This document shows, piece after piece, positions 23,778 through 60,985 of a stretch of DNA of 64,000 nucleotides. The DNA is taken from the NCBI GenBank assembly GCA_043821285.1, contig JBDRCZ010000019.1, positions 2,234 to 66,233 of the forward strand, given 5' to 3'. Every line of letters starts with the position of its first letter. Position 1 is the first letter of the stretch. Below the pieces are notes generated by a model. It was not told the origin of the DNA, did not search any database, and worked only from the letters and a program-made list of their open reading frames with translations. The stretch is from Candidatus Omnitrophota bacterium (lineage in GTDB: Bacteria > Omnitrophota > Gorgyraeia > B26-G9 > JBDRCZ01). Position numbers and translations under genes: made by a program.

Positions 23778-23813
23778 CCCCCCTTGATAGCAGAGTGGCT
23801 GCATTTAACATTC

Positions 23814-44019: not shown

Positions 44020-44090
44020 AAATATCCGGAAAATGCGGTGCATTTTCCGTGCATGAATATCCTCAAGAGCAAGTTCTTGAGGATATTCAT
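44020..44090 (-). terminator. Tandem hairpins just after the HD-GYP gene stop: a perfect 38-nt palindrome ATGAATATCCTCAAGAGC|GCTCTTGAGGATATTCAT (44053-44090), plus CGGAAAATGCggtGCATTTTCCG (44025-44048)
   Basis: Seen directly in the sequence. The second hairpin resembles hairpin 1 of the ~150-bp repeat element. Confidence 0.55.
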
Positions 44091-45629
44091 TTAGTCTTCC
44101 TTTTGCACCTCGGTAATAAGTTCTGGATTTTTATCTAACACCCTTAAAAATGCTTCGACAACTTTAGGATCAAACTGTGTGCCGCTGCATTTCTTAACTT
44201 CCGACATTGCCATATCCTTAGTAAAACCTGTTTCGCGATACGGACGGACGGTTACCATTGCGTCAAAACTATCGGCAACACTAATTATCCGTGCACCAAC
44301 TTTTATCTCTTCACCTTTAAGACCAGTGGGATACCCTTGCCCGTCATATCTTTCATGATGCTGCTTTACAAATTCAATAACATCACCTAAAAAAACCAAC
44401 GGGCTTAAAATTTCTGCGCTCTTTCCTGGGTGTAATTTTATCTCCGCCCACTCTCCGGGAGTTAATTTGTCGTTTTTGGTCAAGATATAATCATGCACGC
44501 CAATCTTCCCTAAATCATGCAGCTGACATGCCAGTCGGATATTTTCTGTATCTTTTTCACCTAGTCCCATCTCCTTGGCAATCTCAACAGCATACCTGGT
44601 CACGTGTTCTGAATGATTACGCGTATAATGATCTTTGGCATCAATCGCTGAAGTCAATGCCTTGACGGTCCGAATATAAGTTTCCGTAAGCGAAGTATAT
44701 AACCGGGCGTTTTCAACCGCAATTGCCGCTTCATTCGTCAACCCTTTGATAAATCCAAAATCTTCTTTAGTAAACGGTTCTCCGGACCTTTTATTATTAA
44801 CGTTAATCACGCCAATAACGTCATTCTTTACGGTTAAAGGGACGCTAATAAAAGAATGGGTATAGTATTGCTCTTTATTGGTTGGAGTAAATCTTGTCTC
44901 TTGCGCAAGATCTTCGACTAATATCCCTTCGCTATTTTCAATAATCCAGCCGGAAATTGACTCTCCTATTTTAATTCTGGTATTACGAATAATGTCCTCG
45001 GTTAACCCCCGGGCCGCCTGAATGGATAATTCCTGCCGGTTTAGATCAAGCAATAAAATCGCGCATTTTTCAATATCTAAAACCGTACAAATTCTATCCA
45101 CGATCGTTTTTAAAACTTCATCCAATTTTATACTGGATAAAATATCGCGGCTGATACTAAAAAGAAGCGATAACTCTTTAGTTCGCTCCTTAACCTTTTC
45201 TTCTAATTTGACATTTTGTTCTTCTAATTCCTTCATCAGTCTTTTATTCATAAACGATAAATTCTGCAAGTCAACCGCTCTTTTTATCACTAAAGAAATC
45301 TCTTCAATATTAAAAGGCTTGGTAATATAATCATAAGCACCTTCTCTTATTGCCGATTGGATAGTTTCGAAAGAAGGGTAACCGGTCATGATGATAACAA
45401 TTGTGTCTGAATTAGCAGATTTTACTTCCTGCAACACCTGTATTCCATTAATATCCGGCATTTTAAAATCTACCATAACAACATTGTAATTATCTTCTTT
45501 AAACGTTTTCAAACCGTCACGTCCGGAGTTAGCATAGTTAACAATATAGCCCCGGTCTTGTAATAAATCTCTCAAAAATTCACACATCACTAATTCATCA
45601 TCAATAATCAGAATCTTTGCCGCTGACAT
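44091..45629 (-). CDS. Response regulator with receiver + GAF + HD-GYP (c-di-GMP phosphodiesterase-type) domains
   Basis: 512 aa. Receiver ILIIDDE...VMVDFKMPD. A GAF region. HDLGKIGV and HHERYDGQGYP are the HD and GYP motifs. Confidence 0.8.
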   Translation of the reverse strand: MSAAKILIIDDELVMCEFLRDLLQDRGYIVNYANSGRDGLKTFKEDNYNVVMVDFKMPDINGIQVLQEVKSANSDTIVIIMTGYPSFETIQSAIREGAYDYITKPFNIEEISLVIKRAVDLQNLSFMNKRLMKELEEQNVKLEEKVKERTKELSLLFSISRDILSSIKLDEVLKTIVDRICTVLDIEKCAILLLDLNRQELSIQAARGLTEDIIRNTRIKIGESISGWIIENSEGILVEDLAQETRFTPTNKEQYYTHSFISVPLTVKNDVIGVINVNNKRSGEPFTKEDFGFIKGLTNEAAIAVENARLYTSLTETYIRTVKALTSAIDAKDHYTRNHSEHVTRYAVEIAKEMGLGEKDTENIRLACQLHDLGKIGVHDYILTKNDKLTPGEWAEIKLHPGKSAEILSPLVFLGDVIEFVKQHHERYDGQGYPTGLKGEEIKVGARIISVADSFDAMVTVRPYRETGFTKDMAMSEVKKCSGTQFDPKVVEAFLRVLDKNPELITEVQKED

Positions 45630-45793
45630 TTATAATCTCCCAATCTCTATTAGACAAAATCAAGCATAATAAAAAAATTTTTCTCGTATAGATTACCCTA
45701 TGAAAACCGTAAGGTTTTCAAGCTTTCTCCTTATTATATAAAAATTCTTTTTTCCTTTTGGCCTACATTTTCTTTATTAAAAGAAAATGTCAG

Positions 45794-45824
45794 GTAAACT
45801 TATTGCCGCAGGCAATAAGTTTAC
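45794..45824 (-). terminator. Intrinsic terminator GTAAACTTATTGCC-gca-GGCAATAAGTTTAC followed by a U-rich tract (minus strand) at the end of the CheY-like gene
   Basis: A 14-bp perfect stem. Downstream on the minus strand is CTGACATTTTCTTTT. Confidence 0.6.
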
Positions 45825-46189
45825 TGTTTATTTCTAATTTTGTTAACAATAGCAATAACTTCTGTTACATTAAATGGTTTATGTATACAAGTTACCGCCC
45901 CATTGGTCATTGACTCTTCAAGGGCATGTATCGGCATACTATCCATCATAACCACCGCAGTATTCGGAGTAAGCTGCCTTAACATTTTAAGTGTTTTTAC
46001 CCCATCCATAACCGGCATGTGCACGTCGACAAAAGCAATCGGGAAAAATTTTTCTTTTACAATACGTTCTGCCTCTTTGCCATTATTAACTGTCGTTACC
46101 TTATATCCCTCATCCTGTAAGATATCAATAAATAAATTACGCATTATCTCTTCATCATCTACTACGAGAATTTCTAAACATTTATCCAT
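45821..46189 (-). CDS. Single-domain CheY-like response regulator receiver
   Basis: 122 aa. ILVVDDEEIMRNLFIDIL, FVDVHMP (the phospho-Asp) and a conserved K near the C-terminus. Confidence 0.8.
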   Translation of the reverse strand: MDKCLEILVVDDEEIMRNLFIDILQDEGYKVTTVNNGKEAERIVKEKFFPIAFVDVHMPVMDGVKTLKMLRQLTPNTAVVMMDSMPIHALEESMTNGAVTCIHKPFNVTEVIAIVNKIRNKQ

Positions 46190-46223
46190 TTTTTTCTCCT
46201 CTGTTTTTTGCTATACAGCAAAA

Positions 46224-46616
46224 TCATGATCCCTCCTGTTTGCTCTGTTCTACGGCCTTTTTCATCGCTTCTCTTATCTCATTTATATCAAACGGTTTAT
46301 GAATGCTAGTAACCGCGCCTTCATGTTCTGCCATTTTAAGGAGAAGGTCGGGATAGCTATCCATCATGACAATTGCTGTCTTCGGGCTGATCCGTTTTAA
46401 AGCCGAGAGAGTCTGTACGCCATCCCTTACCGGCATATGTATGTCTATAAAAGCAGCATTGAAAAATGTTCTTTTGGCTATGTCTTCTGCTTCCTTTCCA
46501 TCAGCTGCCGTAACAACATTATATCCTTCTTCTTGCAGTATATCTGTAAAAAGACTGCGCATTACCTCTTCATCATCGACGACTAATATGTTGATATCCT
46601 GCTTTGCTTGTTCCAT
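46224..46616 (-). CDS. Single-domain CheY-like response regulator receiver (paralog of 45821-46189)
   Basis: Start taken at the internal MEQAKQDINILVVDDEEVMRSLF (the ORF track extends to 46655). About 50% identical to its neighbour. Confidence 0.8.
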   Translation of the reverse strand: MEQAKQDINILVVDDEEVMRSLFTDILQEEGYNVVTAADGKEAEDIAKRTFFNAAFIDIHMPVRDGVQTLSALKRISPKTAIVMMDSYPDLLLKMAEHEGAVTSIHKPFDINEIREAMKKAVEQSKQEGS

Positions 46617-46670
46617 AAAAAAATTAAATATGAAAACACGATTTTTTTCATACAATATATCAACAATCAG

Positions 46671-48305
46671 CTATATCTTTGCCGGAGGTAAAAAAATTAT
46701 AAACTTCGTTCCTTTTCCTTCTTCACTCACCACCTCGATTGCGCCCTGATGATCTTTAATAATCTGGTAACTCACCGCCAGTCCTAATCCTGTTCCTTTA
46801 TCTTTTGTCTTGGTTGTGTAAAATGGTTCGAAAATACGGGGAATATCTTTTTCAGGAATTCCCATTCCGGTATCACTGAATTCAATCTTTATTCCCCATG
46901 GTGATTGTTGAATACCTTCATATCGCATGTTCTCCGTCACAATTGTCAAATCACCGCCATCAGGCATAGCCTGCTGGGCATTTAAAATGATGTTCGTAAA
47001 TACCTGTTGCAGCTGGTTTGTTATCCCCATGGTCTTGGATAAATCCGGATCAAGACTGGTTACCAGATTTATATTTTTCAGTTTTAATTGATGTCCAATA
47101 ATCGAAATCGTCTCTTCGATTGCATGGTTAATATCCAGCACTTCCTGCTTAGCAAATATTGGTTTGCGGGAAAATTTAAGCAGGCTTTCGACGATTTTTT
47201 TACAACGGGTTGACTCTCTTTCAATCGATTCGATATATCTATTGCATGCCTTAAATTCTTCTACGCCAAAGTTGGGCCGTTTAAATTTTTCCAGCATAAA
47301 CTGAGAATATCCCAGAATCCCACCCAAAGGATTATTCAGTTCATGGGCGACCCCGGCTCCCAACTGCCCAACCGCAGCCATCTTTGCTGATTGGACAAGT
47401 TGCGCCTGTGCCTCTTTCAATTCTTTAGTGCGTTCCTCAACCTTTTGTTCCAATGTCCGGCTGTAATTTTCTATTTCATTCCGCGACCTTTTGAGTTCGG
47501 CTGTCATCTGATTAAAAGATTTTGCCAGTATACCGATTTCATCTTTCGCGTGCACATTTACCTGATAAGTTAAATCTCCTGCGGTAATCTTTTGTGTTCC
47601 CAGAACTAATTGACGAATAGGTCCAATGATTATCCCGACGAGAAAAAACGTTATGATGATCCCGATTATAATCACGATTGCTGTTAGTAAAATAATCTGA
47701 ATGGTTATGTTTTTTATTTCATTATTTATATGTGCCAAAGAAATTCCGATCTGGGCAAAACCGATTAACTCTTCTTTTACCGTGGTTACCTCTTCAAACC
47801 CCATAAGTTCTATTTCTTCACGACCCAAAAAAATCTGCTTGGTCTTAATCAAAGACATAATATTATACATCGGTTCATTATCCTCGGAAATAAACGGTGT
47901 TAATATTGGTTTAGACATATTTTCTGCATTTTTAATATCTGCGTCCGGCAGCTCAATTGCCCGATTATCTATAGGATTTCCGGATAAAGCCAAAATTTCT
48001 TTTTCGCGGCTTTGTATCAGACAATAGACCACATCCTCTTCTTCTAATAAACCTTCGACCAACATAACCAGCGGTTGTTTATTTGCGGTCAAAACTCCGT
48101 ACTCGCTGTTAACCGCAATATTTTTTACTAAAAATTCCCCTTTATTCAATAAATCTTTTTTGCGATGCCTTATTTCGTTTTTAATATAGTAATAACTTAA
48201 CGTCGCAGACGTTAAGATAATAATTCCCGAGATTGCTAATATGAATTTTGTCGGTAATGCCAGCTTAGCTATTTTCGAACCAGCCATTAATATACTCCTC
48301 TCCAT
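46671..48305 (-). CDS. Sensor histidine kinase: periplasmic sensor domain + HAMP + HisKA + HATPase_c
   Basis: 544 aa. Two TMs flank a ~170-aa periplasmic domain. HELNNPLGGILGYSQ is the H-box. N/G1/G2 boxes GDLTIVTENM...DTGMGIP...GTGLGLAV. Confidence 0.8.
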   Translation of the reverse strand: MERSILMAGSKIAKLALPTKFILAISGIIILTSATLSYYYIKNEIRHRKKDLLNKGEFLVKNIAVNSEYGVLTANKQPLVMLVEGLLEEEDVVYCLIQSREKEILALSGNPIDNRAIELPDADIKNAENMSKPILTPFISEDNEPMYNIMSLIKTKQIFLGREEIELMGFEEVTTVKEELIGFAQIGISLAHINNEIKNITIQIILLTAIVIIIGIIITFFLVGIIIGPIRQLVLGTQKITAGDLTYQVNVHAKDEIGILAKSFNQMTAELKRSRNEIENYSRTLEQKVEERTKELKEAQAQLVQSAKMAAVGQLGAGVAHELNNPLGGILGYSQFMLEKFKRPNFGVEEFKACNRYIESIERESTRCKKIVESLLKFSRKPIFAKQEVLDINHAIEETISIIGHQLKLKNINLVTSLDPDLSKTMGITNQLQQVFTNIILNAQQAMPDGGDLTIVTENMRYEGIQQSPWGIKIEFSDTGMGIPEKDIPRIFEPFYTTKTKDKGTGLGLAVSYQIIKDHQGAIEVVSEEGKGTKFIIFLPPAKI

Positions 48306-48336
48306 AAATTAGTGCCAAAGGCACTAATTTATGGTA

Positions 48337-49299
48337 TCATTCAAAAATATCCCGTGCCGCTTTTAATATCTGTTCAGGAATTTCTATCCCGATCTGTTTT
48401 GCGGTTCTACGATTAACCGATAAGTATAATTTTCTCGGGAGAGTAACCGGTAATTCCCGGGGCATTTTTCCTGACAATACCGCGGCAGCTAATTCACCCG
48501 ACTGTCTGCCAATATCTTCCAGATCATAGCTTATGCTAAATAATGCGCCGGCTTTAACATAACCCGCAGAAAGTCCCATAAAAGGTTTTCTGTGCCGTAA
48601 AGTGGTCAGAATAATGAATTGGGTAGCCTGCAGGGTAAAAATAGTACCATCCGCCACTCCCCATAAAACATCTATTTCTTTTAGCAACTCTTCTAACGCC
48701 TCGGGAACGTTTTTTTCGGAGTAAACCTTTTTTGCAACTAACACCAGCCCCATTTCCTGGACGGTCTTTGCTGCCTCATCGATTAAAAATTCCGTTTCCT
48801 TGGGATTGTAAAGTACGCCAATTTTCTGGGCATTTGGTATAACCTGTTTAATGTTTGTAAACTGGTCTTTTACAGAAAGATCCATCGCGGCGCCAGTAAG
48901 ATTATTTCCTGAAGACTCAAGTGAATCGACAAATCTTAACATCACCGGATTAAGCACTAAAGAAAAAACCACCGGGATATCGGTTGTACTATTTTTTGCA
49001 ATCTCGGTTGCCAATGACCCCAGGGCTAAAATTAAATCCGGTTTTTTTTCGATGATTTTTTTTGCGGCGCGATAATTTTCTGCTTCTGTACCGGCAAAAT
49101 CTAAGGTGATATATTGCGGCTTAATACCTTTTTGTTTAAATACGTTAGTAAACCCCTCCAATGCAATATTAAACGGCGTAACGTTACGGCTTTTAAAAAC
49201 AGCAATTATCGGCTGACCCTCGGCTTGAACAAAGTGAATTGCTCCAATAAAAATAATGAACGTAAATATAAAAAAACACCTGATATTTTTTTCTGACAT
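48337..49299 (-). CDS. Periplasmic substrate-binding protein of the ABC_sub_bind (COG2984/PF04392) family, with no ABC permease or ATPase partner nearby
   Basis: 320 aa with a signal peptide. ILALGSLATEIAKNSTTDIPVVFSLVLNP is shared with the two paralogs at 56503-57483 and 57749-58675. Confidence 0.7.
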   Translation of the reverse strand: MSEKNIRCFFIFTFIIFIGAIHFVQAEGQPIIAVFKSRNVTPFNIALEGFTNVFKQKGIKPQYITLDFAGTEAENYRAAKKIIEKKPDLILALGSLATEIAKNSTTDIPVVFSLVLNPVMLRFVDSLESSGNNLTGAAMDLSVKDQFTNIKQVIPNAQKIGVLYNPKETEFLIDEAAKTVQEMGLVLVAKKVYSEKNVPEALEELLKEIDVLWGVADGTIFTLQATQFIILTTLRHRKPFMGLSAGYVKAGALFSISYDLEDIGRQSGELAAAVLSGKMPRELPVTLPRKLYLSVNRRTAKQIGIEIPEQILKAARDIFE

Positions 49300-49405
49300 G
49301 AAATTTACCTTCTTTTTGTCACTTGCTATTTATTATAAACAATTGACCGGTTCATTTTCAACGAAAATCAGACTGGTTTATATTTTATCAGTAATTACCA
49401 TATAG

Positions 49406-50791
49406 TTATAGTTTTTTTCGTCGTGACCATAATTTATAGGCCGGTATCCCACTTGCGACCAATGCGATGCCGAACAGCGACTCTTGTGGTTTTTGCCCAA
49501 AGACAATAATCACGATAAGAATATTAGACAAAATAAAAATAATCGGGACAAAAGGATATCCCCAGCATTTAAATGGCCTCGGCATATCCGGTGCCTTGTA
49601 TCTTAATATAATTAAAGACACACCCACGAGCACGGAAAACATCGCAATAACAAATGAGGTAAAAATTAAAAGTTGTTCAAATGTTCCTGAAAAAATAAGC
49701 ACGGTAACACAAATCGCCTGTAAGAGTAGTGCCCAATGCGGCGTTATATATTTAGGGTGTAGGTGTGCTATTTTATCAAAAAAAATCTTATCTTTGGCCA
49801 TAGCAAAATAAATTCTTGCGCCGGTCATGATCATTACATTTAAACAACCAAGTATGGAAATTAAAATTAGGATATTAATCGGAACGGCCATCTTGCGTCC
49901 AAAAAGACTTATTGCTGCCAATGCCCCGATATCCAGTACATTCTTCATCTCTTCTAAAGGCAGTGCATAAAGGTAAACACAATTAACTAATAAATAAAGA
50001 CCAATGGTTATAAGTGTACCCAGCAAAAGCGCCAATGGCACGTTCCGCTGGGGGTTCTTAATTTCACTCGCAATATACGTTGCCCCGTTCCAGCCGGAAT
50101 AAGTAAAGATAACAAACATCAGACTCACGGCAAAAGGCCCAATAACAGAATAACCCGCAGTGTAATGCCAAAAATTTTCGTAATTGACCATGGTCCCTTT
50201 TCCAATGGCAAAGGCAAAAATAGATATCAGCAATAACGGCAGTATTTTTAAAACTGTCAATACATTCTCGATAAAACTACCCCACTTAATCCCAATATAA
50301 TTAATATATGTCAAACAATAAACCACCAGTAATCCCGCAAGTTGTCCTTTGTTAATTGAAAAAGAAAAAACATTTCCAATATTTACCGTAAAGATTACAA
50401 AAGAACTGCCTAACCATGGGGAAAAATTGGCCAAATATTTGGCAAAGGCAATACTCGATAAAGCAATCGATGCAGAAAATGACGCGAAAAGGGCTGTCCA
50501 GCCGACAAGGAATCCGATAATCGGTGAATATGCCCGTTTTAAATAAACGTATTCGCCGCCTGAATGCGGCATGGAAGCCGCCAGTTCCGCATAGGTTAGT
50601 GCCCCGGTAAAAGCAAAAATTCCGCCAACTACCCAAGTCAATAAAATAAGAAATCCCGAATCCAGACTTGCGGCTTGAAACCCTGTTGAGGTAAATATTC
50701 CCGTACCAATTATGTTTCCGACCACGACCATAATTGCACCAAATAACCCGATTTTTCTTGCAAATGTTTTTGTGCTGCTCATTCTATTCAT
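49406..50791 (-). CDS. Amino acid/polyamine/organocation (APC) family permease
   Basis: 461 aa with 12 TMs. An N-terminal GIFTSTG-like signature (GTGIFTSTGFQAAS). Confidence 0.8.
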   Translation of the reverse strand: MNRMSSTKTFARKIGLFGAIMVVVGNIIGTGIFTSTGFQAASLDSGFLILLTWVVGGIFAFTGALTYAELAASMPHSGGEYVYLKRAYSPIIGFLVGWTALFASFSASIALSSIAFAKYLANFSPWLGSSFVIFTVNIGNVFSFSINKGQLAGLLVVYCLTYINYIGIKWGSFIENVLTVLKILPLLLISIFAFAIGKGTMVNYENFWHYTAGYSVIGPFAVSLMFVIFTYSGWNGATYIASEIKNPQRNVPLALLLGTLITIGLYLLVNCVYLYALPLEEMKNVLDIGALAAISLFGRKMAVPINILILISILGCLNVMIMTGARIYFAMAKDKIFFDKIAHLHPKYITPHWALLLQAICVTVLIFSGTFEQLLIFTSFVIAMFSVLVGVSLIILRYKAPDMPRPFKCWGYPFVPIIFILSNILIVIIVFGQKPQESLFGIALVASGIPAYKLWSRRKKL

Positions 50792-50807
50792 TCGCCCCTT
50801 TCTTCTC

Positions 50808-53800
50808 TTATAATTCCTCTATTAACTTTTCAATCTGTTGTAACGTTGCTTGCGCCCTTATTCCGTAAATAGAATTCAATTCCAAAGCATCGTTTAAAAT
50901 TTTACGCGCTTCGAGAACTGAGGTTCTGGCACTGGTATAATCTTTAAGTTCTTTTTCAACCCATGCCTTTAAATAATAGCAATCGCCTAAATCTACATAC
51001 AGTTTATATTCATCAGGAGTAATGCGATAGATCTTTTTATAATATTCTATTGCCGTGTTAAAATCTTTTAGCGCATCTTTATTTTGCCCGATTTCTTTTT
51101 TTAATCTTCCCCAGTGATAATAAAGATACCCCAGCGCATCATATCCCGCTACTGAAGTTTCTAAGGTTATCGAATTTGCCAGTTTTACTTTTGCTAACCC
51201 CATATATTTTTCTGCTTCTTTATAGCGGGCATTGACAAACATTAATATAGCATAATTTAAATAAGCACGTCCGAGTTCAATATCATTATAATAAAAATCC
51301 GGCCTTTTTCGATCTGCATCTTTCAAATAGGAAATTGCCTGCTGAAAGCTGGACTTGGCTTCATAAAAATTGCTGTTTTTTATGTATAAATTCCCCCGCT
51401 GTGAATATAAAAAACCTAAGACCAGATATGCAATGTATGGATTTTTATCTATCCCCAGCGCTTCTTTGGCAATATCTATTGCTCCTTCGGTCACTTCAAT
51501 CTTACCGGCTACTTCTTGAAAATAAAGTTTAAGCGTCTGATGTATTTTATGATAATACTCAACTTTTCGCTTATTTTTTAATAAACCGATGTACGAACCG
51601 TAATAAGCCGACATTAGTGGACTCATATCTATTGCTTTTTTCATATATTGAATAGCTAAGGCAATATCGCCCGTATGCTGATAAAATACCGACATTTGCG
51701 CCGGAACCACGGAAAAATAGGGAAAATCTTCCGATGCCTTTTTTAGTGTTTTAACCGCATCTTCTAATTTATTGTTATGGAAATAGGTTAAGGCAAGATA
51801 AAGGTATTGTGCAATATCAGGTTCATTTTTTAATTTCTGTTTGTATATTCTGATTAATTCCAAATGGTTGCCTTGGGGAAAAAGATATTGTGAAACGGCG
51901 CGGTTTATTCTTAAAAATTTTTCATAAACGCCATTATTATAAAACGAGCCAAGATTATATGTCGTATCATATAAAATCAGCAGTCCTTGGATATTTAAAA
52001 CTTTAAACACCTTATCAATGTTTTTGTACACTTCTTGCGAATCAATATACATTAAAACATTCTGTACGCTGACAAGATCGTATGGCGGCCGGAAATTTTC
52101 CGGTAAATTAACCGGCAAATCAGTCAGGATATTTTGTTCTTTAAAGATGATGTGTTCCTTAAAAAAATTCACGTCTTTTATACTATATCCGTTATCCACT
52201 TTTATAAAATATTTCATAATTTTCTGCTTTATTTCTTCGGGAACGCGCAAAAAGGCATCTTCAGGAAAAGTCATTTTTTCCGCAATCTCCACGACCCGCT
52301 GATCATAATCCGTCGCTAAAATATAAAAATCCTTAATCCCCAGCTCAAGCAGTGCCATGGCAAAGGTTAGTGGTTCCTGTCCGGTCGAGCAGGCAAATAC
52401 TTTTAGTTTTAATGGTCGATTTTGCGCTTTTGCTTTTGCCGCCAGTGGTGGTATATACCTCAGGAATTCTTTAACCTCAGTCCAGTTACGGTAAAAATAG
52501 GTACTGCTTAAAGTATAAAACTTTACCGATAAGGAAAAAAGCAATTGATCATCTACTTTATCCAACTGACCAATGCCATTTGACAGTAAATAATTATTCA
52601 GGTTTTCACTCAATTGATATTTATCTTTATCACTTAACTCGATAAAAAATACCGTCTTATACCGCCTTTTGATTTTTTCGGCTAATTGATCATAGGTATT
52701 ATTGTTTAATTTATGATCTTTAAGAACGGTAATATATTCGGCTATTGCCGTATTGATCATTTTTGCCGGTAACAGGCGATCATCCACATGTTCCAATAAA
52801 TTAGCTATGTTATTTAGCACGTTAAAATCATTAATTAAAAAATACCAGTCATAAATTTTGCTCCCATCCTGTTTATATCTGACAAACGGCTTATTTAGAA
52901 ACTTTATTAATTTTTCTTTTGACAGCTCAAAATCTGTTATAAATTCTGTATCGCCTAATACCGCGGGGGCGGTGTAATTATCTAAAGGAGCGGTGATATC
53001 AAACAAAAGATTATAAGGATTTTTTATGGAAACATTTCCCGATACGGCAATCATTCTCTTCGCGGGATTGCTGCCCAAGCGGGCAAGAATACTAACTACA
53101 TTCTTATCGTGCATTAGATCTTTGACCAGCGCATTATCAAAATATACCTTTTCTGCAAATTTGTCCGAGCTCGTAAACAAATGCCGCTTTTGATTAGCCT
53201 GATTGGGTTGGATATCTTTTGCACTTAAGGTATGTGTTAACCAGCTAATTATCTTTTCCTCGACTTCATGCCGGACATCGGAAAGAAATAATCTTGTCCC
53301 GTGTCCCTTTTGATTATATATTTTTAATTCTTTAACCCCTTGATAATTCTCATAAAGATGTTTGCCGGATGCATAGTTTTGTTCTGTTTCATCTAAAAAT
53401 ACTAACAGGCTAATATCTTTTTTAGCTATATTTTTTATCTCGTTTTTAACTTCGACTCCCAGATAATTAAATGCCGGAGACATCAATACCATGCTGCATA
53501 TATTATTAGATACAGCCGCAAGTTGTATCGCAACATTACACCCAAGGCTCGCACCAATAAGCCCAACCCTCTCCAGATCAACGCCCGGCTGCTGCAATAA
53601 AAAATCTCTGGCCGCAGTTGCATCCTTTATCATGTCTTGATATGCGGCATATTTAAATTTTTGCCAATTAATATCCTTGCCTTTTTGCACGTTACTTTGG
53701 CCATGTCCGCGCAGGTCAATTGCCAGCACAACATATCCTTCCTGCTGTAATTTTTGCGCAAAGGCATGCCAATCCTCTTTGCTCCCCTGCCACATATGAA

Positions 53801-54017
53801 AAAGCATCACTGCCGGCCTGCTGTTTGTATCCTGATGAAAATATAAAGTGCCTTTGATAATCACGCTATCACTGGTAGAAAACTCCACGGTTTTTACCGG
53901 ATATTCCATAGAAAATGCCAATCTGGCATTAAAAATAACCAATAACAAAAATATAAATACTACCTGATTAAAATTTTTCACCTTCTCTACTCCTGGCAAT
54001 CGCCCTGAATTCGTCAA
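50808..54017 (-). CDS. Tripartite protein: N-terminal signal/anchor + alpha/beta-hydrolase (dienelactone-hydrolase-like), a central CheR-type SAM methyltransferase, and C-terminal TPR repeats
   Basis: 1069 aa from a TTG. An alternative GTG start at ~53978 has an AGGAG RBS. GASLGCNVA is the GxSxG. KVFACSTGQEPLTFAMAL...ATDYDQRVVEIAEK...YDLVSVQNVLMYID aligns to CheR motifs (xxxACSTGEEPYSxAM...ASDID...FCRNVMIYFD). The C-terminal ~400 aa are TPR-like. Confidence 0.65.
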   Translation of the reverse strand: MTNSGRLPGVEKVKNFNQVVFIFLLLVIFNARLAFSMEYPVKTVEFSTSDSVIIKGTLYFHQDTNSRPAVMLFHMWQGSKEDWHAFAQKLQQEGYVVLAIDLRGHGQSNVQKGKDINWQKFKYAAYQDMIKDATAARDFLLQQPGVDLERVGLIGASLGCNVAIQLAAVSNNICSMVLMSPAFNYLGVEVKNEIKNIAKKDISLLVFLDETEQNYASGKHLYENYQGVKELKIYNQKGHGTRLFLSDVRHEVEEKIISWLTHTLSAKDIQPNQANQKRHLFTSSDKFAEKVYFDNALVKDLMHDKNVVSILARLGSNPAKRMIAVSGNVSIKNPYNLLFDITAPLDNYTAPAVLGDTEFITDFELSKEKLIKFLNKPFVRYKQDGSKIYDWYFLINDFNVLNNIANLLEHVDDRLLPAKMINTAIAEYITVLKDHKLNNNTYDQLAEKIKRRYKTVFFIELSDKDKYQLSENLNNYLLSNGIGQLDKVDDQLLFSLSVKFYTLSSTYFYRNWTEVKEFLRYIPPLAAKAKAQNRPLKLKVFACSTGQEPLTFAMALLELGIKDFYILATDYDQRVVEIAEKMTFPEDAFLRVPEEIKQKIMKYFIKVDNGYSIKDVNFFKEHIIFKEQNILTDLPVNLPENFRPPYDLVSVQNVLMYIDSQEVYKNIDKVFKVLNIQGLLILYDTTYNLGSFYNNGVYEKFLRINRAVSQYLFPQGNHLELIRIYKQKLKNEPDIAQYLYLALTYFHNNKLEDAVKTLKKASEDFPYFSVVPAQMSVFYQHTGDIALAIQYMKKAIDMSPLMSAYYGSYIGLLKNKRKVEYYHKIHQTLKLYFQEVAGKIEVTEGAIDIAKEALGIDKNPYIAYLVLGFLYSQRGNLYIKNSNFYEAKSSFQQAISYLKDADRKRPDFYYNDIELGRAYLNYAILMFVNARYKEAEKYMGLAKVKLANSITLETSVAGYDALGYLYYHWGRLKKEIGQNKDALKDFNTAIEYYKKIYRITPDEYKLYVDLGDCYYLKAWVEKELKDYTSARTSVLEARKILNDALELNSIYGIRAQATLQQIEKLIEEL

Positions 54018-54663
54018 TGTTTTTTTTAAGATTCCTGTCTAATTGTATTGCTCTCCTAAAATCTTTTCCCGCCTTTTTCTTTTCTCTCTGTAAAACATAG
54101 ATCCTGCCCCGGGTAAAATAACTGAATGCATGATCTCTATTCAGTTTAATTGCACCGGATATATCCCGCATTGCTTCATCTAATTTATTTAACTCCATAA
54201 GAATAAGCGCCCGGTTGTTTAAAGAAAAAAAGTTTTCCGGTTCTAACTCGATGGCAATATTGGCATTTTCTAATGCCTTTTCTAATTCATGCAGATTATA
54301 AAATACCCAGGCAAGATTATTATGAACAATATGATCAAGGCGGTTAATCTCTAATGCGCGGTATAAATCTTTTAGCGCCTGGTCATATTTTTCAAGTTCC
54401 GTGTACAAAAAAGAACGTGCAATATATGCACGTATTAACTTCTCTCCGCTATTGTTCTGACCGCGTTCGGATTCAATTATTTTCGTGTTCGCGGCGATCT
54501 TTTGCTCAATATTCGAAATGTTTGGCAGATATTTCCAATTTTTAAAATTTGCGGCAAAAATAACATCCGCTAAGACAAAAACCAAATATACAAATACAAA
54601 TAAACCAATTAATAAATTCCCCTGCCCATTCTCTTCTTCAATTATGTTGCTAATTCCGTTCAC
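53968..54663 (-). CDS. TPR-repeat protein with an N-terminal membrane anchor
   Basis: 231 aa. TM LLIGLFVFVYLVFVL, then several 34-aa TPR-like repeats (ALKDLYRALEINRLD..., ALENANIAIELEPENFF...). Confidence 0.6.
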   Translation of the reverse strand: MNGISNIIEEENGQGNLLIGLFVFVYLVFVLADVIFAANFKNWKYLPNISNIEQKIAANTKIIESERGQNNSGEKLIRAYIARSFLYTELEKYDQALKDLYRALEINRLDHIVHNNLAWVFYNLHELEKALENANIAIELEPENFFSLNNRALILMELNKLDEAMRDISGAIKLNRDHAFSYFTRGRIYVLQREKKKAGKDFRRAIQLDRNLKKNIDEFRAIARSREGEKF

Positions 54664-54689
54664 CCCCTTAAATATGCGAGTTGCGCTGT

Positions 54690-56465
54690 TTAGCCGGCAA
54701 TTTCCGATTCCTGTTTATTATTATCTTCCGCTTCTTCTTTTAATTTAAACCGCTTTACTAAATTTGCCAAACTTGCCGCCATTTTTGATAATTCTTCGGA
54801 TGAAGAAGTCATTTCTTCCATCGATGAGGTTTGCTGCTGGGTTGAAGTTGAAGTTTCCTGCGCTGCGGACGAGCTCTCCTGGGCAATTGCCGCCAATTCC
54901 TCAATTGCCTTAACTACCCCTTGGGTAACCTTAAGTTGTTCCTGGGCTGCGGTTGAAATATCCGTAACCATTACCGCGGTCTTTTCTACGGTAGTAATAA
55001 TCTCACTGAGCGCTTTTCCGGCCCGATTAACCACTTCTCTTCCACTGGTAACTTCTTTTGAGCCCACCTCGATTGTCCCCACTGCCTTACCAATCTCCGT
55101 CTGTATCCCTTTGATTAATCCGCCAATTTTAGTTGTTGCATCCGCTGACCCCTCCGCTAATTTTCTGATCTCCTCCGCGACCACGGCAAAACCGCGGCCG
55201 GTCTCGCCGGCGCGTGCCGCTTCAATCGCGGCATTTAATGCCAAAAGATTGGTCTGGTCAGCAATCTTCGTAATTACTTCCGTAATTTCACCAATTTGCA
55301 GAGAACGTTCATTTAAGGCACGGATTAAATTCGTGGCAATCGTTACAACTTCCGCAATTTTATCCATCTTTCCGACTGTTTCTTCCGTTGCCTCACCTCC
55401 GACTTGCGCCCGGTCCCTGGCTTGCTGTGAGGCCTCGGCTGCATGCTGAGCATTTTCTGTCACTTGCCGTACCGACCCAGACATTTCATCCATAAGCTTA
55501 GATATTTCCCCCATACGTATTGCCTGGGTCGTAACCCCTTTAGATATCTGCTGGATGGTTGAAGAAATTTCCAATGTTGATGCATTCATGTGCTGGGTAA
55601 ATGAAGACATCTCTTGCGCCGAGGAATTTACTTTCTCTGCCGTGTTTCTAATCTGGCCAACAATATGGTGGGTACTTCGAATAAGCGTGTTAAACCCATC
55701 CGCTAACTGCCCAATCTCATCTTTTAATTGAATATTTACCTGTTGGGTTAGGTCTCCTTCTGCCGCGTTCTGAGCTCCTAACAGTAATAATTTAATTGGA
55801 TAAATTAATCTTTTTACCCCGGCAATAGTTACTACCGTACTAATCAGAATGATTATAAGGGTTAACATTATCGTAGTATTAGTGATGCGTTTGGTTAACA
55901 AATCCGTATTTTTAAGAGAGATGCCCACGCGGGCAACCCCGATCTTGCCTTTGCTTGTTTCTTTCAATTCCTTATCTTCCGAAAACAACCCCATTTCCAA
56001 CTCCGAAAATCCTCCGCCAATTGAATACACTGGCACGGTAATATCATATAAAGATTCCCTGTTTTTATTTTCATATACCTCAACAACCGGTTCAGTCGCG
56101 GTTATTGCTTTTGCATTTATTTTACCACCCAATCCCAGTTCTTCCATGCCGCTTTCACTACTTGCTAAAACATTACCTTCTAAATCTTGAGTTATGGCGT
56201 AAACCACGTCATCCTCTTTCATCACCCCATCAATAAGCTTAGAAAGCATTTCGCGGTTGGCAATCAATACGCCATATTCACTGTTATAGGCTAAATTTTT
56301 CGCTAAAGAAAGCCCGCGTTTTCGCAGATCCTCATATGCCTGTTGATTTACATATCTTATAAAATAAAAACTCAAGCTGCTGGCAACAATAATAATTAGT
56401 AAGGCAATTGAAATTACGGCCTTAAGCTGTAATCCGATCCTAAATGTTTTATGAGAAATATCCAT
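54690..56465 (-). CDS. Methyl-accepting chemotaxis protein (periplasmic sensor + HAMP + MCP signalling domain)
   Basis: 591 aa. The highly conserved MCP hairpin tip [31 protein letters not shown]. The N-terminal sensor is homologous to that of the kinase at 46671-48305. Confidence 0.85.
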
Positions 56466-56502
56466 ATATAACCTCCTGCATCAATACGTTTAATTATTAT
56501 AG

Positions 56503-57483
56503 CTACTTAAAAATTTCATCTGCTTTTGATAATACTTTCGCCGGGATTTTTATCCCCATAATATCAGCAACTCGTACATTTATAGCCAGGTCCGGGTCCG
56601 TTGGTAAATCTACCGGAATATCCCCGGGCGCCTCTCCTTTTAACACCCGTATAATCATCTCCCCGGTTTTTCGGCCGATATTTTTATAATTACAGTACAC
56701 GCCCATTAATGCCCCGGCTTTTACAAAACTCGGAGAAAATCCGATAAATGGGATCTTATTGCGTAAACTAAATAGCAGGATAAACTGGATAGACTGAGAA
56801 GTAAAGACCGTTGTATCTACCGTTCCCCAGAGAACATCAATCTTTCCATTAAGCGATTCTATGGTTTTAGGCACATCAGCTTTGGAAGAAACCGGCAGCG
56901 CAACCAATTCTAATCCAAGTTTTTCTGCAGCTTCTTTTGCTTCCTTAACCACTCCTGCGGTTTTATCCCGGTCATAGACAACTCCAATTCTTCGTGCCGT
57001 GGGAATAATTGATTTTATCACCGTAAACTGTGTCTCAACGGAAATATTAATACTAACCCCGGTTACATTGTTACCTGGACGTGTCATGCTATTAACTAAA
57101 CCTTCCTCAAGCGGATTAATCACCAGGGAAAATACTACCGGGATATCAGAGATTTCATTTTTAACGATAATACTTGCCTTTGAGCCAAGGGTTAATATTA
57201 AATCGCTTTTTTTATCTTTAATTTTTCGGGCCATCGCCTGTCCCTGCGGCGTACTATCTTCGAAATTATAATAGGTAAAATTAGGCGTGTATCTATTTTT
57301 TTTCAATATCTCGCCAATCCCTTCCACAATACTCTGATAAGCATTAAGTTCCCGATCGATAAAAACAGGTATGTCCACTTCCGCCGCGGCAAGCGGATTT
57401 ATCATGGATAGTAAAAAACAGAGGGAAAATATAAATAACCGTACACTTTTTTTTCTCAGGTTATTTATCTTCAATAAAACCAT
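56503..57483 (-). CDS. ABC_sub_bind (COG2984) family periplasmic binding protein, paralog 2, adjacent to the MCP
   Basis: Start taken at the internal MVLLKINNLRKK with a signal peptide (the ORF track extends to 57657). ILTLGSKASIIVKNEISDIPVVFSLVINP. Confidence 0.65.
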   Translation of the reverse strand: MVLLKINNLRKKSVRLFIFSLCFLLSMINPLAAAEVDIPVFIDRELNAYQSIVEGIGEILKKNRYTPNFTYYNFEDSTPQGQAMARKIKDKKSDLILTLGSKASIIVKNEISDIPVVFSLVINPLEEGLVNSMTRPGNNVTGVSINISVETQFTVIKSIIPTARRIGVVYDRDKTAGVVKEAKEAAEKLGLELVALPVSSKADVPKTIESLNGKIDVLWGTVDTTVFTSQSIQFILLFSLRNKIPFIGFSPSFVKAGALMGVYCNYKNIGRKTGEMIIRVLKGEAPGDIPVDLPTDPDLAINVRVADIMGIKIPAKVLSKADEIFK

Positions 57484-57748
57484 GGTAACCTCATGCGATA
57501 TAATTACCTGCCGCTTTAAAATCCGCAGACATAGCCCTTGGATGTCAGAAAAACCTTTGTGCTGTACATCGTCTCCGTTTGCTGGCTCGGTTTTTAAATA
57601 ATTGCCGCTTATTAGATAATTACTGCCAAATATATTAAGCACAATCGAGTTTCCCACTTTTTCTTCTCCTGTTTTTCTCTTTTATTTGTAAAAACACTGT
57701 TTTACCCGCACACGAAAAAGTCATTGTGTAAACCCGCGGCGCTGCACT

Positions 57749-58675
57749 TTACTCGACAATTTCCGCCTTATCGATAATTGCCTGAGGTATCAATAAATTT
57801 ATTTTCTCCGCAACCTTTAAATTTAAAACTAAATTAACCGTTTGTGGAGACTGGATGCCAATATCAGCCGGTGTCTTTTCCCCGCTTAAAATTTTATTAG
57901 CAATATCTGCGGCCTGTCTGCCTAAATCTTGACAATCAACATCCAAACTGAATAATCCCCCTTTTTTTACAAAGGTTTTAGCCGGACATAGTAACGGTAT
58001 CTCATTACTTAAACTAAAAAACAGCAATCCTTGAAATACCGTGCTATTTACAACAACCGGGTCGGGAATTACCCAAAAGGCATCGATCTTGTCTTGCAAA
58101 TATTTAATCGTTTTAGAAATCTCTGATTTCGACTCCATCTTTACATCAACAATAGTTAGATCTAAAGCCAGCGCTTCTTTTTTAGCTTCCTTAATTATCT
58201 CGGTAGTTCTTTGCGGATCGTATATCACCCCTACTCTTTTAACCTGCGGGGCGATGTTTTTTAAATGTATCAGTTGATATTTAGGTGCTACGTCTAACCT
58301 CACCCCACAGATATTGTCGCCAACTAAACCATACCGGACAGGATTCACGACCATGCTAAAAACAATCGGGATATTTGAGATATTCAGTTTAGCCAGCTGG
58401 GCGGCTTTGCTGCCAAGGGCAAAAATTAGGCGGGGAGACTGAAACCGGATTCGCTCGATGATATTTTTTCCTTTATTTAAATCTCCGTGCAGCCAATATT
58501 CGGTCGTCCGCCCCTCATAAGCATCATTAAATCCTTTAAGCACCAACGGATAAATACTATAATCCTCACCAACAATAACCGCAACATCCGCGGCATCGGC
58601 TTTAATACACCATACCCCCATTAATACCCATACTAAAAATAAACCGACAATTACTGCCCGCTTTTCTTTTCTCAT
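57749..58675 (-). CDS. ABC_sub_bind (COG2984) family periplasmic binding protein, paralog 3
   Basis: Start taken at MRKEKRAVIVGLFLVWVLMG (the ORF track N-terminal extension to 58801 reads through a repeat element). IFALGSKAAQLAKLNISNIPIVFSMVVNP. Confidence 0.65.
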   Translation of the reverse strand: MRKEKRAVIVGLFLVWVLMGVWCIKADAADVAVIVGEDYSIYPLVLKGFNDAYEGRTTEYWLHGDLNKGKNIIERIRFQSPRLIFALGSKAAQLAKLNISNIPIVFSMVVNPVRYGLVGDNICGVRLDVAPKYQLIHLKNIAPQVKRVGVIYDPQRTTEIIKEAKKEALALDLTIVDVKMESKSEISKTIKYLQDKIDAFWVIPDPVVVNSTVFQGLLFFSLSNEIPLLCPAKTFVKKGGLFSLDVDCQDLGRQAADIANKILSGEKTPADIGIQSPQTVNLVLNLKVAEKINLLIPQAIIDKAEIVE

Positions 58676-58777
58676 CTTCACTCCTTTGCACCATTCCGAT
58701 ATTCCATCATCGTCGAAAAACCTTTGCTTCTCATCAAAACGATAATGAATCTCCCGCTCAGCAAGAGAAGGGGTATC

Positions 58778-58930
58778 TTCATACATGGAAAATGCAATCA
58801 TTTTCCGGTCATCCGCCTAGGCGGATGCAAGCGAAATTGTCTTCGCTTCCGCCACGGCGGATCTTCGACAATTTCGCAAAAAACAAAAACCTTTTACCCT
58901 CTAGCTTGCTACCGGGAATACTCAAGTTTA
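58778..58930. repeat. Copy 2 (inverted) of the ~150-bp structured repeat
   Basis: The reverse complement of 23626-23777 at about 90% identity. Its middle hairpin is replaced by a different self-complementary sequence, CATCCGCCtaGGCGGATG. Confidence 0.7.
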
Positions 58931-58967
58931 TCCACGCACAAAACATGTTCTGTATCCGGGATGTTTT

Positions 58968-60926
58968 CTAAAAGGTATAAGTAAAATTAGCCGTAATCCT
59001 TCTTGTTATATCAGCAGTATCTATCGGATAATCATCATACTTATTATCAAAAAGATTCCAAACGGACAATGCTACTTCCGCATTATTATTTAACAGTCTA
59101 AGTTTATAACCCAGGCGCACATTAACAATAAGATAATCGTCTGCTTTCCCTCCGCCGATTGTTCTGCCTTGAAGGGGAGGATTTGCAGAATTGTACCAGG
59201 CATATTCTAACCAGTTTGTAGAACCTCGATAATGGAGAGAAACATTTGCTGAAATTCTATTTGCAAACTGCGCTCTTAGTTGAGCATTAAACATATGTTC
59301 TGGAGTCATCAACAAAAAGTCGCGATCACTAACATCATCCTCCCACATCTTATAATAGGTATAATTAAATACACCACTCAACCAGTCAGTAACCGGATAC
59401 TTTAACTCTATTTCTGCCCCATACTGCATCAGGTTTTCTGCATTTACATAGTCTATTATTTGCGGCGGACCTAAAAATATAGTTCTTTTGGCAATATAAT
59501 CAGCGACCTTAGTATAGAATAGATTAGTCTCTATACTCAATTTTTCAACCCATCCTCGGTAACCAATTTCCAAGGTCTCTGCTTTTTCAGGTTCAAGGGT
59601 TTCATATCCTGTGAGAATATAGGTGCCAGGGATCACATAACTTACATAGCTCTCAACAAAATCAGGATTGCGAAAGGCACTTGAACTGGTAAAACGAAAA
59701 TGATGCTTCTCATTAGGAGAATAAAGAAAGGCTAAGCGGTGAGAATTGGTATCTCCAGTATTGGGGTGGAAATCAAACCGCAGTCCGGTATCAATACTAA
59801 AATTATCAGTAAGTTTATAAACATTATCCGCATATACGCCACTCATGTCGTGTCTGCGTTTACCGCAAAGAACGCTAAGAACTTTAACCTGGCTAACATT
59901 AGCTCCCCACACAAAGATATCGTTCCCAAAAGGCTCAAAAGAATGCTGGAATTCTGCACCCTGCAATTTCATTTGCGACGCAGCGTTCCTCGCCACTCCT
60001 TTAGAGTTACCACTATCCCAATGGTCCTTAAAAGACCAAAAAACACGAGAAATTATATTAGGGTCACGAGAGGTATATGATACTGCGGTAAAGTAATAGT
60101 CAGAATCTGCATAGTCTATCGCACCGGTGCTTTCAGAAAACCCATAACACTCTCGTAGATCCATATAGCTTCCCACAAGATTAACCTTAGAGTTATCATC
60201 AATAATATAATCAACACTGGCATTTGTTCGGGGATATTTGCCTACCGGGTTATCTAAGTAAGCAATAGAACCGGAAAAATTATCCCGATAATCTAACCCC
60301 AAAGAAAGCCGGTAATCTATTTTATTCTCTATTGAGCTTCCATGCAGGTAATTGCCGACAATTGTATTATCTTCTCCGACTGTTAAAGAAACTAACGTCC
60401 CCGGTATATCCTTAAGTTTTTTGGTAATTATATTCACTAATCCGAGCATCGCATTAGCGCCATAAAGAGAAGAACCAGGTCCTCGTAATACCTCTATCCT
60501 TTCAATTTCTTCTAAGGCTATTGGTAACGGATAGTACGCCGGGCGATTATACATATCCCATTGCCAAAGTACTCCGTCAATTAAAAGTAATGTTTTATTT
60601 CCTGGTAATTTTTCAAAACCTCTTATGCCGCCGGCAATCATATAATTAGCTGCGGTGTAGCCTATATGCACGCCTGGGGTCATAATAAATGCTTCACCAA
60701 GTTGTGTTGCCCCTAATTGCTTAATGTCTTCACTGGTTATAACTGATATTGCTGAAGGAGCCTCGACGATCTTCTGTTCCCTTTTTGCGGCAGTAACAAT
60801 TATGTCTTCTCCGTAAATGAGCTCCAACTCCTCAATTTCTATTTCTTGGGCAGCGATTCTTAAAGAAAAAAAAGACAAAATCATCACCAGAGAAAAAACT
60901 ATCTGATAAGACGCTACTTTAGTCAT
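58968..60926 (-). CDS. TonB-dependent outer-membrane receptor
   Basis: 652 aa. A signal peptide, a plug domain with IVTAAKREQKIVEAPSAISVI, and a beta-barrel ending in the terminal aromatic ...NFTYTF. Confidence 0.8.
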   Translation of the reverse strand: MTKVASYQIVFSLVMILSFFSLRIAAQEIEIEELELIYGEDIIVTAAKREQKIVEAPSAISVITSEDIKQLGATQLGEAFIMTPGVHIGYTAANYMIAGGIRGFEKLPGNKTLLLIDGVLWQWDMYNRPAYYPLPIALEEIERIEVLRGPGSSLYGANAMLGLVNIITKKLKDIPGTLVSLTVGEDNTIVGNYLHGSSIENKIDYRLSLGLDYRDNFSGSIAYLDNPVGKYPRTNASVDYIIDDNSKVNLVGSYMDLRECYGFSESTGAIDYADSDYYFTAVSYTSRDPNIISRVFWSFKDHWDSGNSKGVARNAASQMKLQGAEFQHSFEPFGNDIFVWGANVSQVKVLSVLCGKRRHDMSGVYADNVYKLTDNFSIDTGLRFDFHPNTGDTNSHRLAFLYSPNEKHHFRFTSSSAFRNPDFVESYVSYVIPGTYILTGYETLEPEKAETLEIGYRGWVEKLSIETNLFYTKVADYIAKRTIFLGPPQIIDYVNAENLMQYGAEIELKYPVTDWLSGVFNYTYYKMWEDDVSDRDFLLMTPEHMFNAQLRAQFANRISANVSLHYRGSTNWLEYAWYNSANPPLQGRTIGGGKADDYLIVNVRLGYKLRLLNNNAEVALSVWNLFDNKYDDYPIDTADITRRITANFTYTF

Positions 60927-60985
60927 TCTTGTCTCCTGGCAAATATAACCGCATTGTCATATTTGCCGGTAAAATTATCTGAAGC

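Follow-up and report, generated by a model that had tools for sequence, protein, structure and literature searches.

A putatively exported CheR-like methyltransferase joined to an α/β-hydrolase and a TPR superhelix in a Candidatus Omnitrophota bacterium

In a 64,000-nucleotide stretch of a Candidatus Omnitrophota metagenome-assembled genome (MAG), analysed here over its whole length and termed the window, one minus-strand gene (the target) encodes a protein with an unusual domain order: a signal-peptide-like leader, a Ser-His α/β-hydrolase, a spacer, a small module specific to its clade, a complete CheR fold and an 8-repeat superhelix of tetratricopeptide repeats (TPRs) (Table 1). The minus-strand gene order around it is two TonB-dependent receptors, two PF04392 solute-binding proteins, a methyl-accepting chemotaxis protein (MCP), a TPR protein with one transmembrane segment (TM-TPR), the target, a permease of the amino acid-polyamine-organocation (APC) superfamily, another PF04392 protein, an sCache_4-HAMP histidine kinase, two receivers, a response regulator with GAF and HD-GYP domains (RR-GAF-HD-GYP) and TonB. 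The hydrolase, CheR and TPR domains, the hydrophobic N-terminus and the neighbours listed in a preliminary description of the window were all recovered at their positions by open reading frame (ORF), Pfam and motif checks, and the motifs ACSTGQEPLTFAMAL, ATDYDQ, NVLMYID, GASLGCNVA and FIFLLLVIFNARLAFS are all present in the target translation.

The target gene likely starts at GTG 53981, which is preferred because AGGAG stands 8 nt upstream as a ribosome-binding site (RBS) and because the product from this codon is 100% identical to the NCBI model P0001 (1057 aa), currently named 'MAG: alpha/beta fold hydrolase [Candidatus Omnitrophota bacterium]'. A longer ORF form, 50808..54017(-), opens at TTG 54017. 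Both codons had been put forward as candidate starts: the one written as GTG ~53978 is GTG 53981 and was retained, and TTG 54017 was rejected on the two grounds just given. ATG 53909 was also rejected, since it has no RBS and would delete a leader that is conserved in homologs. The architecture is not an assembly artefact, because P0002, from an independent Omnitrophota MAG, is 53% identical to the target and collinear with it over the full length, leader included.

Table 1. Features of the target gene and of the rest of the window (residues of the 1057-aa form; window coordinates)
Feature	Residues	Coordinates	Strand	Basis or remark
Whole target gene, 1057-aa precursor		50808..53981	-	ORF, GTG start with RBS, NCBI model
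Signal-peptide-like leader, MKNFNQ/VVFIFLLLVIF/NARLAFS	1-24	53910..53981	-	Predicted cleavage AFS↓ME; sole hydrophobic segment
α/β-Hydrolase (carboxylesterase-type)	25-253	53223..53909	-	Pfam, fold matches
Trp64 codon	64	53790-53792		Candidate specificity determinant
Inter-domain spacer	254-318	53028..53222	-	Low-confidence helices, pLDDT 30-50
Clade-specific small α+β module	~319-405	52767..53027	-	Common to ~35 representative clusters
CheR N-terminal-like helical subdomain	~406-492	52506..52766	-	Foldseek + hhalign
CheR SAM-dependent methyltransferase domain	~493-700	51882..52505	-	PF01739, 5FTW match
C-terminal TPR superhelix	706-1056	50814..51866	-	17 helices, ~8 repeats
sCache_4-HAMP-MCPsignal receptor (MCP)		54690..56465	-	Pfam, 160 bits
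One-TM TPR protein (TPR_1, TPR_2)		53968..54663	-	Stop overlaps target start by 14 nt
APC-superfamily LAT-like amino-acid permease		49406..50791	-	AA_permease_2 209 bits; 16 nt downstream of target
Two paralogous sensor modules		43318-62839	-
Histidine kinase of the second sensor module		46671-48305
Polysaccharide biosynthesis/export locus		1-36738	-
Radical-SAM/SPASM enzyme		14172-15410
Radical-SAM/SPASM enzyme		22398-23804
RNase P RNA		32224-32594	-	Class A, 198 bits
RNase H-like ORF		32515-33000
tRNA gene		33983-34056	-
tRNA gene		34133-34205	-

Several independent comparisons agree that the central domain is, as judged from sequence and predicted fold, a genuine CheR homolog with intact catalytic residues and an intact pocket for S-adenosylmethionine (SAM), as the preliminary description had proposed. 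Pfam detected CheR PF01739 at 505–682 (86.1 bits against a cutoff of 27, E 2.8e-24), besides Hydrolase_4, Abhydrolase_1 and DLH at about 36–218 (52, 48 and 45 bits, above cutoffs) and several TPR families at 707–1041; these Pfam positions are numbered from the TTG start, and residue numbers elsewhere follow the 1057-aa form. A sequence search of solved structures returned the Bacillus CheR 5FTW at E 3.5e-17. The AlphaFold2 (AF2) model of residues 300–705, based on a 28-sequence family alignment, reached a predicted local distance difference test score (pLDDT) of 87.6, and its top ten Foldseek matches were all CheR, over about 290 columns at E about 1e-12. Against 1af7 and 1bc5, 292–297 columns were aligned on targets of 269–274 residues, with TMt values of 0.64–0.71. 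The alignment takes in both the N-terminal helical subdomain and the methyltransferase domain, showing that the two-subdomain CheR fold is present; the Pfam model of the CheR N-terminal domain, PF03705, was not detected in the target. In profile-profile comparison by hhalign, the clade matched canonical CheRs with a probability of 99.8% (E 3.5e-30) over canonical columns 25–263, that is, from canonical helix α2 onward.

Key residues of this domain are Arg498 in TTYFYR, motif I at C531–E536, Asp558, and Tyr645 in NVLMYID. The residues R98 and Y235 (Salmonella numbering), named as catalytic in CheR (PMC3447774), map to R498 and Y645 of the target via the 1BC5 alignment. Fifteen columns are invariant among 28 clade members at about 30% identity (alignment A2); they take in the T..F.R motif, CSTGEE, the ASD acidic residue, PPYD and N..LY, and the R498 and Y645 columns are invariant in 28/28. 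The domain is thus apparently active, as far as its residues tell. In the column of the canonical α2 Arg, found as R in 8/14 canonical CheR sequences, the 28 clade members have N (12), A (10), T (3), V (2) or I (1), and none has Arg. This Arg is presumably Salmonella R53, which we take to be needed for docking on the receptor methylation helix. The NCBIfam equivalog for CheR, NF007902, scored the target at 33.6 bits, far under its cutoff of 435.

The hydrolase domain was modelled with pLDDT above 90. Its sequence matches among solved structures are esterases, broad-specificity carboxylesterases being nearest, and its fold matches include PET46, TTL lipase, feruloyl esterase and DLH, at TMt values of 0.64–0.76. 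The active-site elements are Ser145 (GASLG), His227 (GHGT) and an acidic residue near 197–200, and Trp64 lies in an HMW oxyanion motif. We compared nine CheR-associated hydrolases (those of the window, P0002, L009, L011, L012, L013, L087, L095 and P0034), and all nine keep GxSxG, the acidic residue and GHGT. H-x-W stands at the oxyanion motif in every one of them, as against 0/39 stand-alone relatives, which have L, M, F or Y at the Trp64 position in 39/39 (Leu in 30). The domain bears no sign of the CheB catalytic domain PF01339, which gave no match in the target or in any window ORF of at least 110 aa.

Between the two enzymes, the spacer shows moderate conservation with P0002 (alignment A1) and no Pfam match. 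The following module corresponds to the region 'NYYLATLVGE...DFYFY' of the relatives and lies outside the CheR-aligned region in both Foldseek and hhalign. It was modelled with pLDDT mostly 84–96, falling to 62–74 at fragment residues 41–60, and has no Pfam match and no known family. The TPR superhelix has pLDDT mostly 93–98, and its Foldseek matches are 8-repeat consensus TPR (CTPR) proteins and the TPR domain of O-GlcNAc transferase (OGT).

The leader comprises a basic n-region, an 11-residue h-region and A-F-S↓M. P0002 and P0003 carry the same leader type in different sequence, with sites AAA↓Y and SMA↓A, respectively. Compared with the features of Sec signals (a basic n-region, an h-region of 7–15 residues and small residues at -3/-1), the leaders of these three proteins are compatible with cleavable Sec signals rather than transmembrane anchors. 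Scoring by one fixed criterion on sequence features found leader-like N-termini in 24/30 clade members versus 1/29 ordinary CheR or CheR-TPR proteins, and in 26/30 stand-alone relatives of the hydrolase. In nearly all full-length clade members, the chain opens with a basic n-region and a hydrophobic run, after which comes the conserved motif NYY(L/I)ATL(V/I)GE. The target is not membrane-spanning, given that its single hydrophobic segment is N-terminal; all target domains are therefore on the same side of the membrane. In the C-terminal fusions described below, the hydrolase lacks a separate leader, in line with a single compartment for both enzymes.

The extent of the clade emerged when target residues 1–700 were searched exhaustively against 1.84 billion representatives. 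About 35 clusters (50% identity) share the clade module and CheR, with lengths of 770–1043 aa, and the same search returned many stand-alone hydrolases of about 245 aa, aligned from residue 5 on. An N-terminal hydrolase was found only in the query's own cluster, bearing out the earlier remark that such a fusion is unusual, and a C-terminal hydrolase in one other representative, P0034. The full-length word-indexed homolog search had yielded no proteins beyond P0001 and P0002, a result probably due to crowding of the candidates by TPR words; its profile form gave one weak match, and a metagenome scan with alignment A1 gave none. Species-representative genomes with the clade belong to Candidatus Omnitrophota, Candidatus Auribacterota and Elusimicrobia, besides one unclassified MAG. 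The long-form members, mostly from Auribacterota (L006 9209–12316, L007 9311–12274, P0038, P0041, P0042, P0043 and P0069), have an extra N-terminal domain of about 170 aa between leader and clade module, with the motif EIQAVTL...FLKQ...FLYC.TIRGP.IL. This extension has no Pfam match and might functionally replace the hydrolase and permease. No account of a CheR that is exported or joined to a hydrolase was found in the literature searched.

Gene neighbourhoods set the clade apart from ordinary CheR. We compared 16 family loci besides the window (L001, L006–L014, L086–L088, L090, L091 and L095; L089 duplicates L009; some contigs are short) with 144 ordinary-CheR loci from the same scans, all searched with the window's own proteins. 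A homolog of the hydrolase domain was present in 6/16 family loci and 0/144 controls (Fisher p 4e-7), and a permease homolog at the same frequencies (6/16 versus 0/144, Fisher p 4e-7). Conversely, an MCP neighboured none of the 16 family genes and 105/144 of the ordinary ones (Fisher p 7e-9), and CheB neighboured 1/16 versus 117/144; since several family loci come from related organisms, these p-values overstate independence. All-against-all clustering of every locus ORF brought out no further recurrent partner.

The arrangements of the partners are varied. In L009, L013 and L095 the CheR-like gene is followed by the permease and then by a convergent exported hydrolase; in L012 the hydrolase, and in L091 the permease, comes directly after the CheR-like gene. 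L011, L087 and P0034 have a single ORF of about 1035–1043 aa with the hydrolase C-terminal, the form found in Elusimicrobia, and in the window and P0002 the hydrolase is N-terminal. These opposite orders mean that the two enzymes became joined on at least two occasions. The fusions, together with the adjacent-gene arrangements, strongly support the cooperation of esterase and methyltransferase envisaged in the preliminary description. Permease homologs adjoin the CheR-like gene in L009, L011, L013, L087, L091 and L095, often with a spacing of at most 16 nt or an overlap. Between the window and L013, the CheR-like part is 33%, the hydrolase 35% and the permease 33% identical, and such similar values for three parts fit a deep-branching lineage and joint inheritance. 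At the level of gene content and order, comparative genomics thus shows the predicted methyltransferase, esterase and permease to be functionally coupled, and the clade to be decoupled from che genes.

Taken together, we favour, with a rough probability of 0.55, the reading that the target is a carboxyl-methyltransferase/esterase pair acting outside the cytoplasm and coupled to a permease, with no part in chemoreceptor adaptation, and that its clade is an undescribed, Sec-exported branch of the CheR superfamily; the location, the substrate and the direction of transport are what we infer here. In the putative model, the signal peptide would direct the complete 1057-aa chain through the inner membrane. 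The CheR-like domain would then methyl-esterify a carboxylate of an envelope substrate outside the cytoplasm. This substrate would most likely be a protein, with the clade module and the 8-repeat TPR superhelix holding it. The fused serine carboxylesterase would act on the same substrate or its product, in the simplest case by cleaving off the methyl ester, which would yield a writer/eraser pair chemically analogous to CheR/CheB. More speculatively, the permease, the proposed third component of the module, might move an amino-acid-like small molecule linked to the reaction: SAM or S-adenosylhomocysteine (SAH), methionine or homocysteine, or a released product. In a bolder version, the whole clade would perform reversible carboxyl methylation of envelope proteins outside the cytoplasm, with the CheR-type protein as writer, the hydrolase as eraser and the permease swapping cytoplasmic SAM for periplasmic SAH; we hold this version to be improbable. 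Under it, the targets could conceivably be periplasmic sensor domains or binding proteins encoded nearby.

A number of observations weigh against the favoured reading. Hydrolase and permease partners occur in only about 40% of the family loci, some of which are related as noted above, and the long-form Auribacterota loci are without both. The window permease is only 29–33% identical to the other family permeases, and a crude neighbour-joining tree did not group the window hydrolase with the other associated hydrolases. Export of the whole target chain is inferred from simple sequence features only. Within the window, the target is probably co-transcribed with the MCP and TM-TPR genes, to judge from their spacing, and the MCP beside it has canonical methylation sites with no other CheR in the window. 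In L006, a CheB (PF01339, 193 bits, receiver part not detected) and two receivers lie about 1 kb upstream of the clade member. Moreover, we know of no route for SAM into the bacterial periplasm, which makes an active exported SAM enzyme problematic.

This last point keeps alive a reading in which the exported CheR-like domain binds SAM, SAH or a related compound without catalysis, the esterase and permease serve extracytoplasmic scavenging and uptake of a nutrient derived from an amino acid, and the TPR array is a scaffold. Such a ligand sensor would need no periplasmic SAM supply, and it would fit both the adjacency of the permease and the broad-specificity carboxylesterases among the nearest esterase structures; Treponema CheWS, with a CheR-like fold that senses SAM, is a precedent (PMC10653840). 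We nevertheless regard it as unlikely, because the invariance in the clade alignment extends beyond the SAM pocket to the catalytic Arg and Tyr, the strictly conserved set of CheWS consists of different residues, and a TPR superhelix of 350 residues suggests a macromolecular partner.

The neighbouring receptor is the basis of a second alternative, put forward in the preliminary description: the N-terminus would be a tether, the protein would be cytoplasmic, and the CheR domain would methylate, and the hydrolase demethylate, the orphan MCP as a stand-in for CheB, which would make the unit a self-contained module for adaptation. The genes are tightly packed and co-directional (26 nt between MCP and TM-TPR and the 14-nt overlap between TM-TPR and target), and no terminator-like site was found in the gaps from MCP through TPR and target to permease; a promoter-like site (11/12) follows the permease. 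The MCP, an ordinary methylatable receptor, has four heptad-spaced consensus methylation sites at residues 525–555, in its cytoplasmic domain, and the window holds neither another CheR nor a CheB. In agreement with the preliminary description on this point, a scan of all window ORFs of at least 110 aa found no CheA, CheW, CheB, CheD, CheC or CheZ domain; two single-domain receivers are present, inside the histidine-kinase operon. Alternative chemosensory pathways are known to include CheR-TPR fusions (PMC3447774), and the CheB near the family member in L006 might also be counted in favour. That case is the only one in 16 loci and has a recombinase gene intervening, and a chemosensory link through L006 was rejected accordingly.

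Several results speak more strongly against the receptor as substrate. The n-region, h-region and A-F-S↓M fit a cleaved signal peptide inserted N-in, which would place the protein outside, and the ordinary CheR-TPR proteins retrieved have no such leader. An exported enzyme and cytoplasmic methylation sites would leave the target in the wrong compartment for methylating the MCP. The receptor-docking Arg of α2 is missing throughout the clade, the family genes of the 16 other loci are without an MCP beside them, which at family level is the outcome that the preliminary description had named as refuting its model, and the conserved partners are the hydrolase and permease, not Che proteins. The MCP itself is without the C-terminal pentapeptide in its translation. 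The adjacent MCP is thus probably not the substrate, and the proposal that the unit replaces CheR/CheB for this receptor finds no support in the neighbour counts for MCP and CheB, the α2 column or the leader; we consider it quite unlikely. The fallback offered with it, a methyltransferase for a different substrate, is the better reading in the context of the clade, and a lineage-specific link between the target and the window MCP is possible.

A third alternative, which we consider very improbable, is that of a secreted effector that would methylate and de-esterify targets inside a host or prey cell, where SAM is available. The export signal, the large size, domains that need a cytoplasm-like cofactor and the restriction of the clade to uncultured phyla would suit such a role; some of their members may live in association with hosts, and TPR domains are common in effectors. 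It is opposed by the absence of conserved secretion-system genes adjacent to the clade genes and by the ordinary free-living envelope repertoire of the window, with TonB receptors and polysaccharide synthesis, and it would leave the conserved inner-membrane permease unexplained.

The remaining genes of the window were also inspected. The permease has as its best NCBIfam models TIGR00909 and TIGR00911 (LAT), both under cutoff. In the TM-TPR protein, whose start codon and topology are uncertain, the N-tail is acidic and a basic flank follows the TM segment. By the positive-inside rule, the basic flank would put its TPRs in the cytoplasm, on the side of the MCP and opposite the exported protein. 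It was rejected as a conserved partner, since no homolog occurs in the 16 family or 144 control loci. A SAM or SAH riboswitch was sought near the operon and none was found. The RR-GAF-HD-GYP gene near the target belongs to a separate histidine-kinase operon behind a promoter-like site.

The window also contains two paralogous sensor modules, with PF04392 genes ('ABC substrate-binding') before each sCache_4-HAMP sensor. One has the MCP as its sensor, the other the histidine kinase with two receivers and the RR-GAF-HD-GYP protein, and TonB receptors and TonB bracket both. The arrangement resembles sensing that is assisted by binding proteins and connected with outer-membrane uptake. Given the paralogy of the two sensor domains and the PF04392 genes before each, the target and permease have one such module on either side. 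Positions 1–36738 of the minus strand hold a large locus for the synthesis and export of polysaccharide, with glycosyltransferases of families GT4 and GT2, two Wzy-like genes, a flippase, Wza-, Wzz- and tyrosine-kinase-like genes, three polysaccharide deacetylases, two class I methyltransferases, two radical-SAM/SPASM enzymes, an ATP-grasp protein, a PrpF-like isomerase and two FemAB-like acetyltransferases. These genes suggest an amino-acid- or peptide-decorated glycan as the product. The 5' end of the RNase P RNA overlaps the last ~80 nt of the RNase H-like ORF, and two tRNA genes lie nearby.

Some family loci show features of their own. On the Auribacterota contig L006 (5430–9115), a receiver gene is followed by genes for a small exported protein, a second receiver, CheB and an XerD-like recombinase, and then by the clade member. 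On three related Omnitrophota contigs (L013 9390–9800, L090 604–1005 and L095 4721–5122), an exported ORF of 133–136 aa stands directly upstream of the clade gene and looks like RlpA with its double-psi β-barrel (DPBB), by sequence alone (...ASWY...). On the P0003 contig (L001; 341–5726 and 9036–13216), an NAD-dependent epimerase and a GT2 glycosyltransferase flank the clade member, which has a type IV pilus PilM/N/O cluster at a distance of a few kb, and L086 also has an adjacent epimerase. In the L001 sublineage, a link to envelope glycan or pilus biogenesis is possible.

Comparison with known systems places the target near CheR (PF01739 plus PF03705; 1AF7, 1BC5 and 5FTW), with which it shares the two-subdomain fold, the SAM motifs and the equivalents of R98 and Y235. 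It differs in adding an export leader, the clade module, a fused esterase and a long TPR array, in lacking the α2 Arg and a detectable PF03705, and in belonging to a clade outside chemosensory clusters. FrzF is a further CheR-TPR protein. CheR-TPR fusions such as WspC likewise have TPRs C-terminal to CheR and conserved catalytic residues; those described are 320–690 aa long, typically have about 2 repeats and are encoded in che clusters alongside multidomain response regulators (PMC3447774). By contrast, the target has 1057 aa, about 8 repeats and a leader, which the CheR-TPR proteins examined do not have, and its clade is without che neighbours. In each test run (predicted compartment, α2 Arg, context, NF007902, TPR length and size), the target departed from a CheR of receptor adaptation and from a CheR-TPR of ACF (alternative cellular function) type.

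Treponema denticola CheWS, in which CheW is joined to a CheR-like sensor of SAM, is likewise a non-canonical fused CheR-like protein that does not methylate receptors, and its receptor-binding regions are not conserved; it is cytoplasmic, anchored in the chemotaxis array and limited to spirochetes (PMC10653840). In the clade of the target the catalytic Arg and Tyr are invariant, and the target has no CheW. The pair CheR/CheB follows the same logic of a SAM-dependent carboxyl methyltransferase and a serine esterase, although the CheB fold differs (PF01339 plus receiver). LCMT-1/PME-1 and BioC/BioH are also pairs of a methyltransferase and a methylesterase, and PME-1 and BioH are α/β-hydrolases like the target domain. 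None of these three pairs is known to be exported, fused with TPRs in one chain or linked to an APC permease. O-GlcNAc transferase, whose TPR superhelix feeds protein substrates to the transferase domain, resembles the target in carrying a long TPR superhelix on a group-transfer enzyme, an analogy of architecture only, given that its catalytic domain is unrelated, its TPRs are at the opposite end, and it is eukaryotic and cytoplasmic.

In summary, these comparisons bear on the biology of CheR and on its annotation. Relatives of the target would be read as chemotaxis CheR and could mislead the inference of chemotaxis in MAGs of Omnitrophota, Elusimicrobia and Auribacterota; the target's present name, solely 'alpha/beta fold hydrolase', would be corrected. 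CheR is treated as strictly cytoplasmic and dedicated to chemoreceptor adaptation, and a clade that is predicted to be exported and whose CheR domain still looks catalytically intact would extend CheR chemistry to the cell envelope. It also raises the question of how, or whether, SAM-dependent methylation runs outside the bacterial cytoplasm. If the version with SAM/SAH exchange were true, the clade would represent the first bacterial extracytoplasmic protein methylation machinery and its permease the first bacterial SAM carrier of the APC family.

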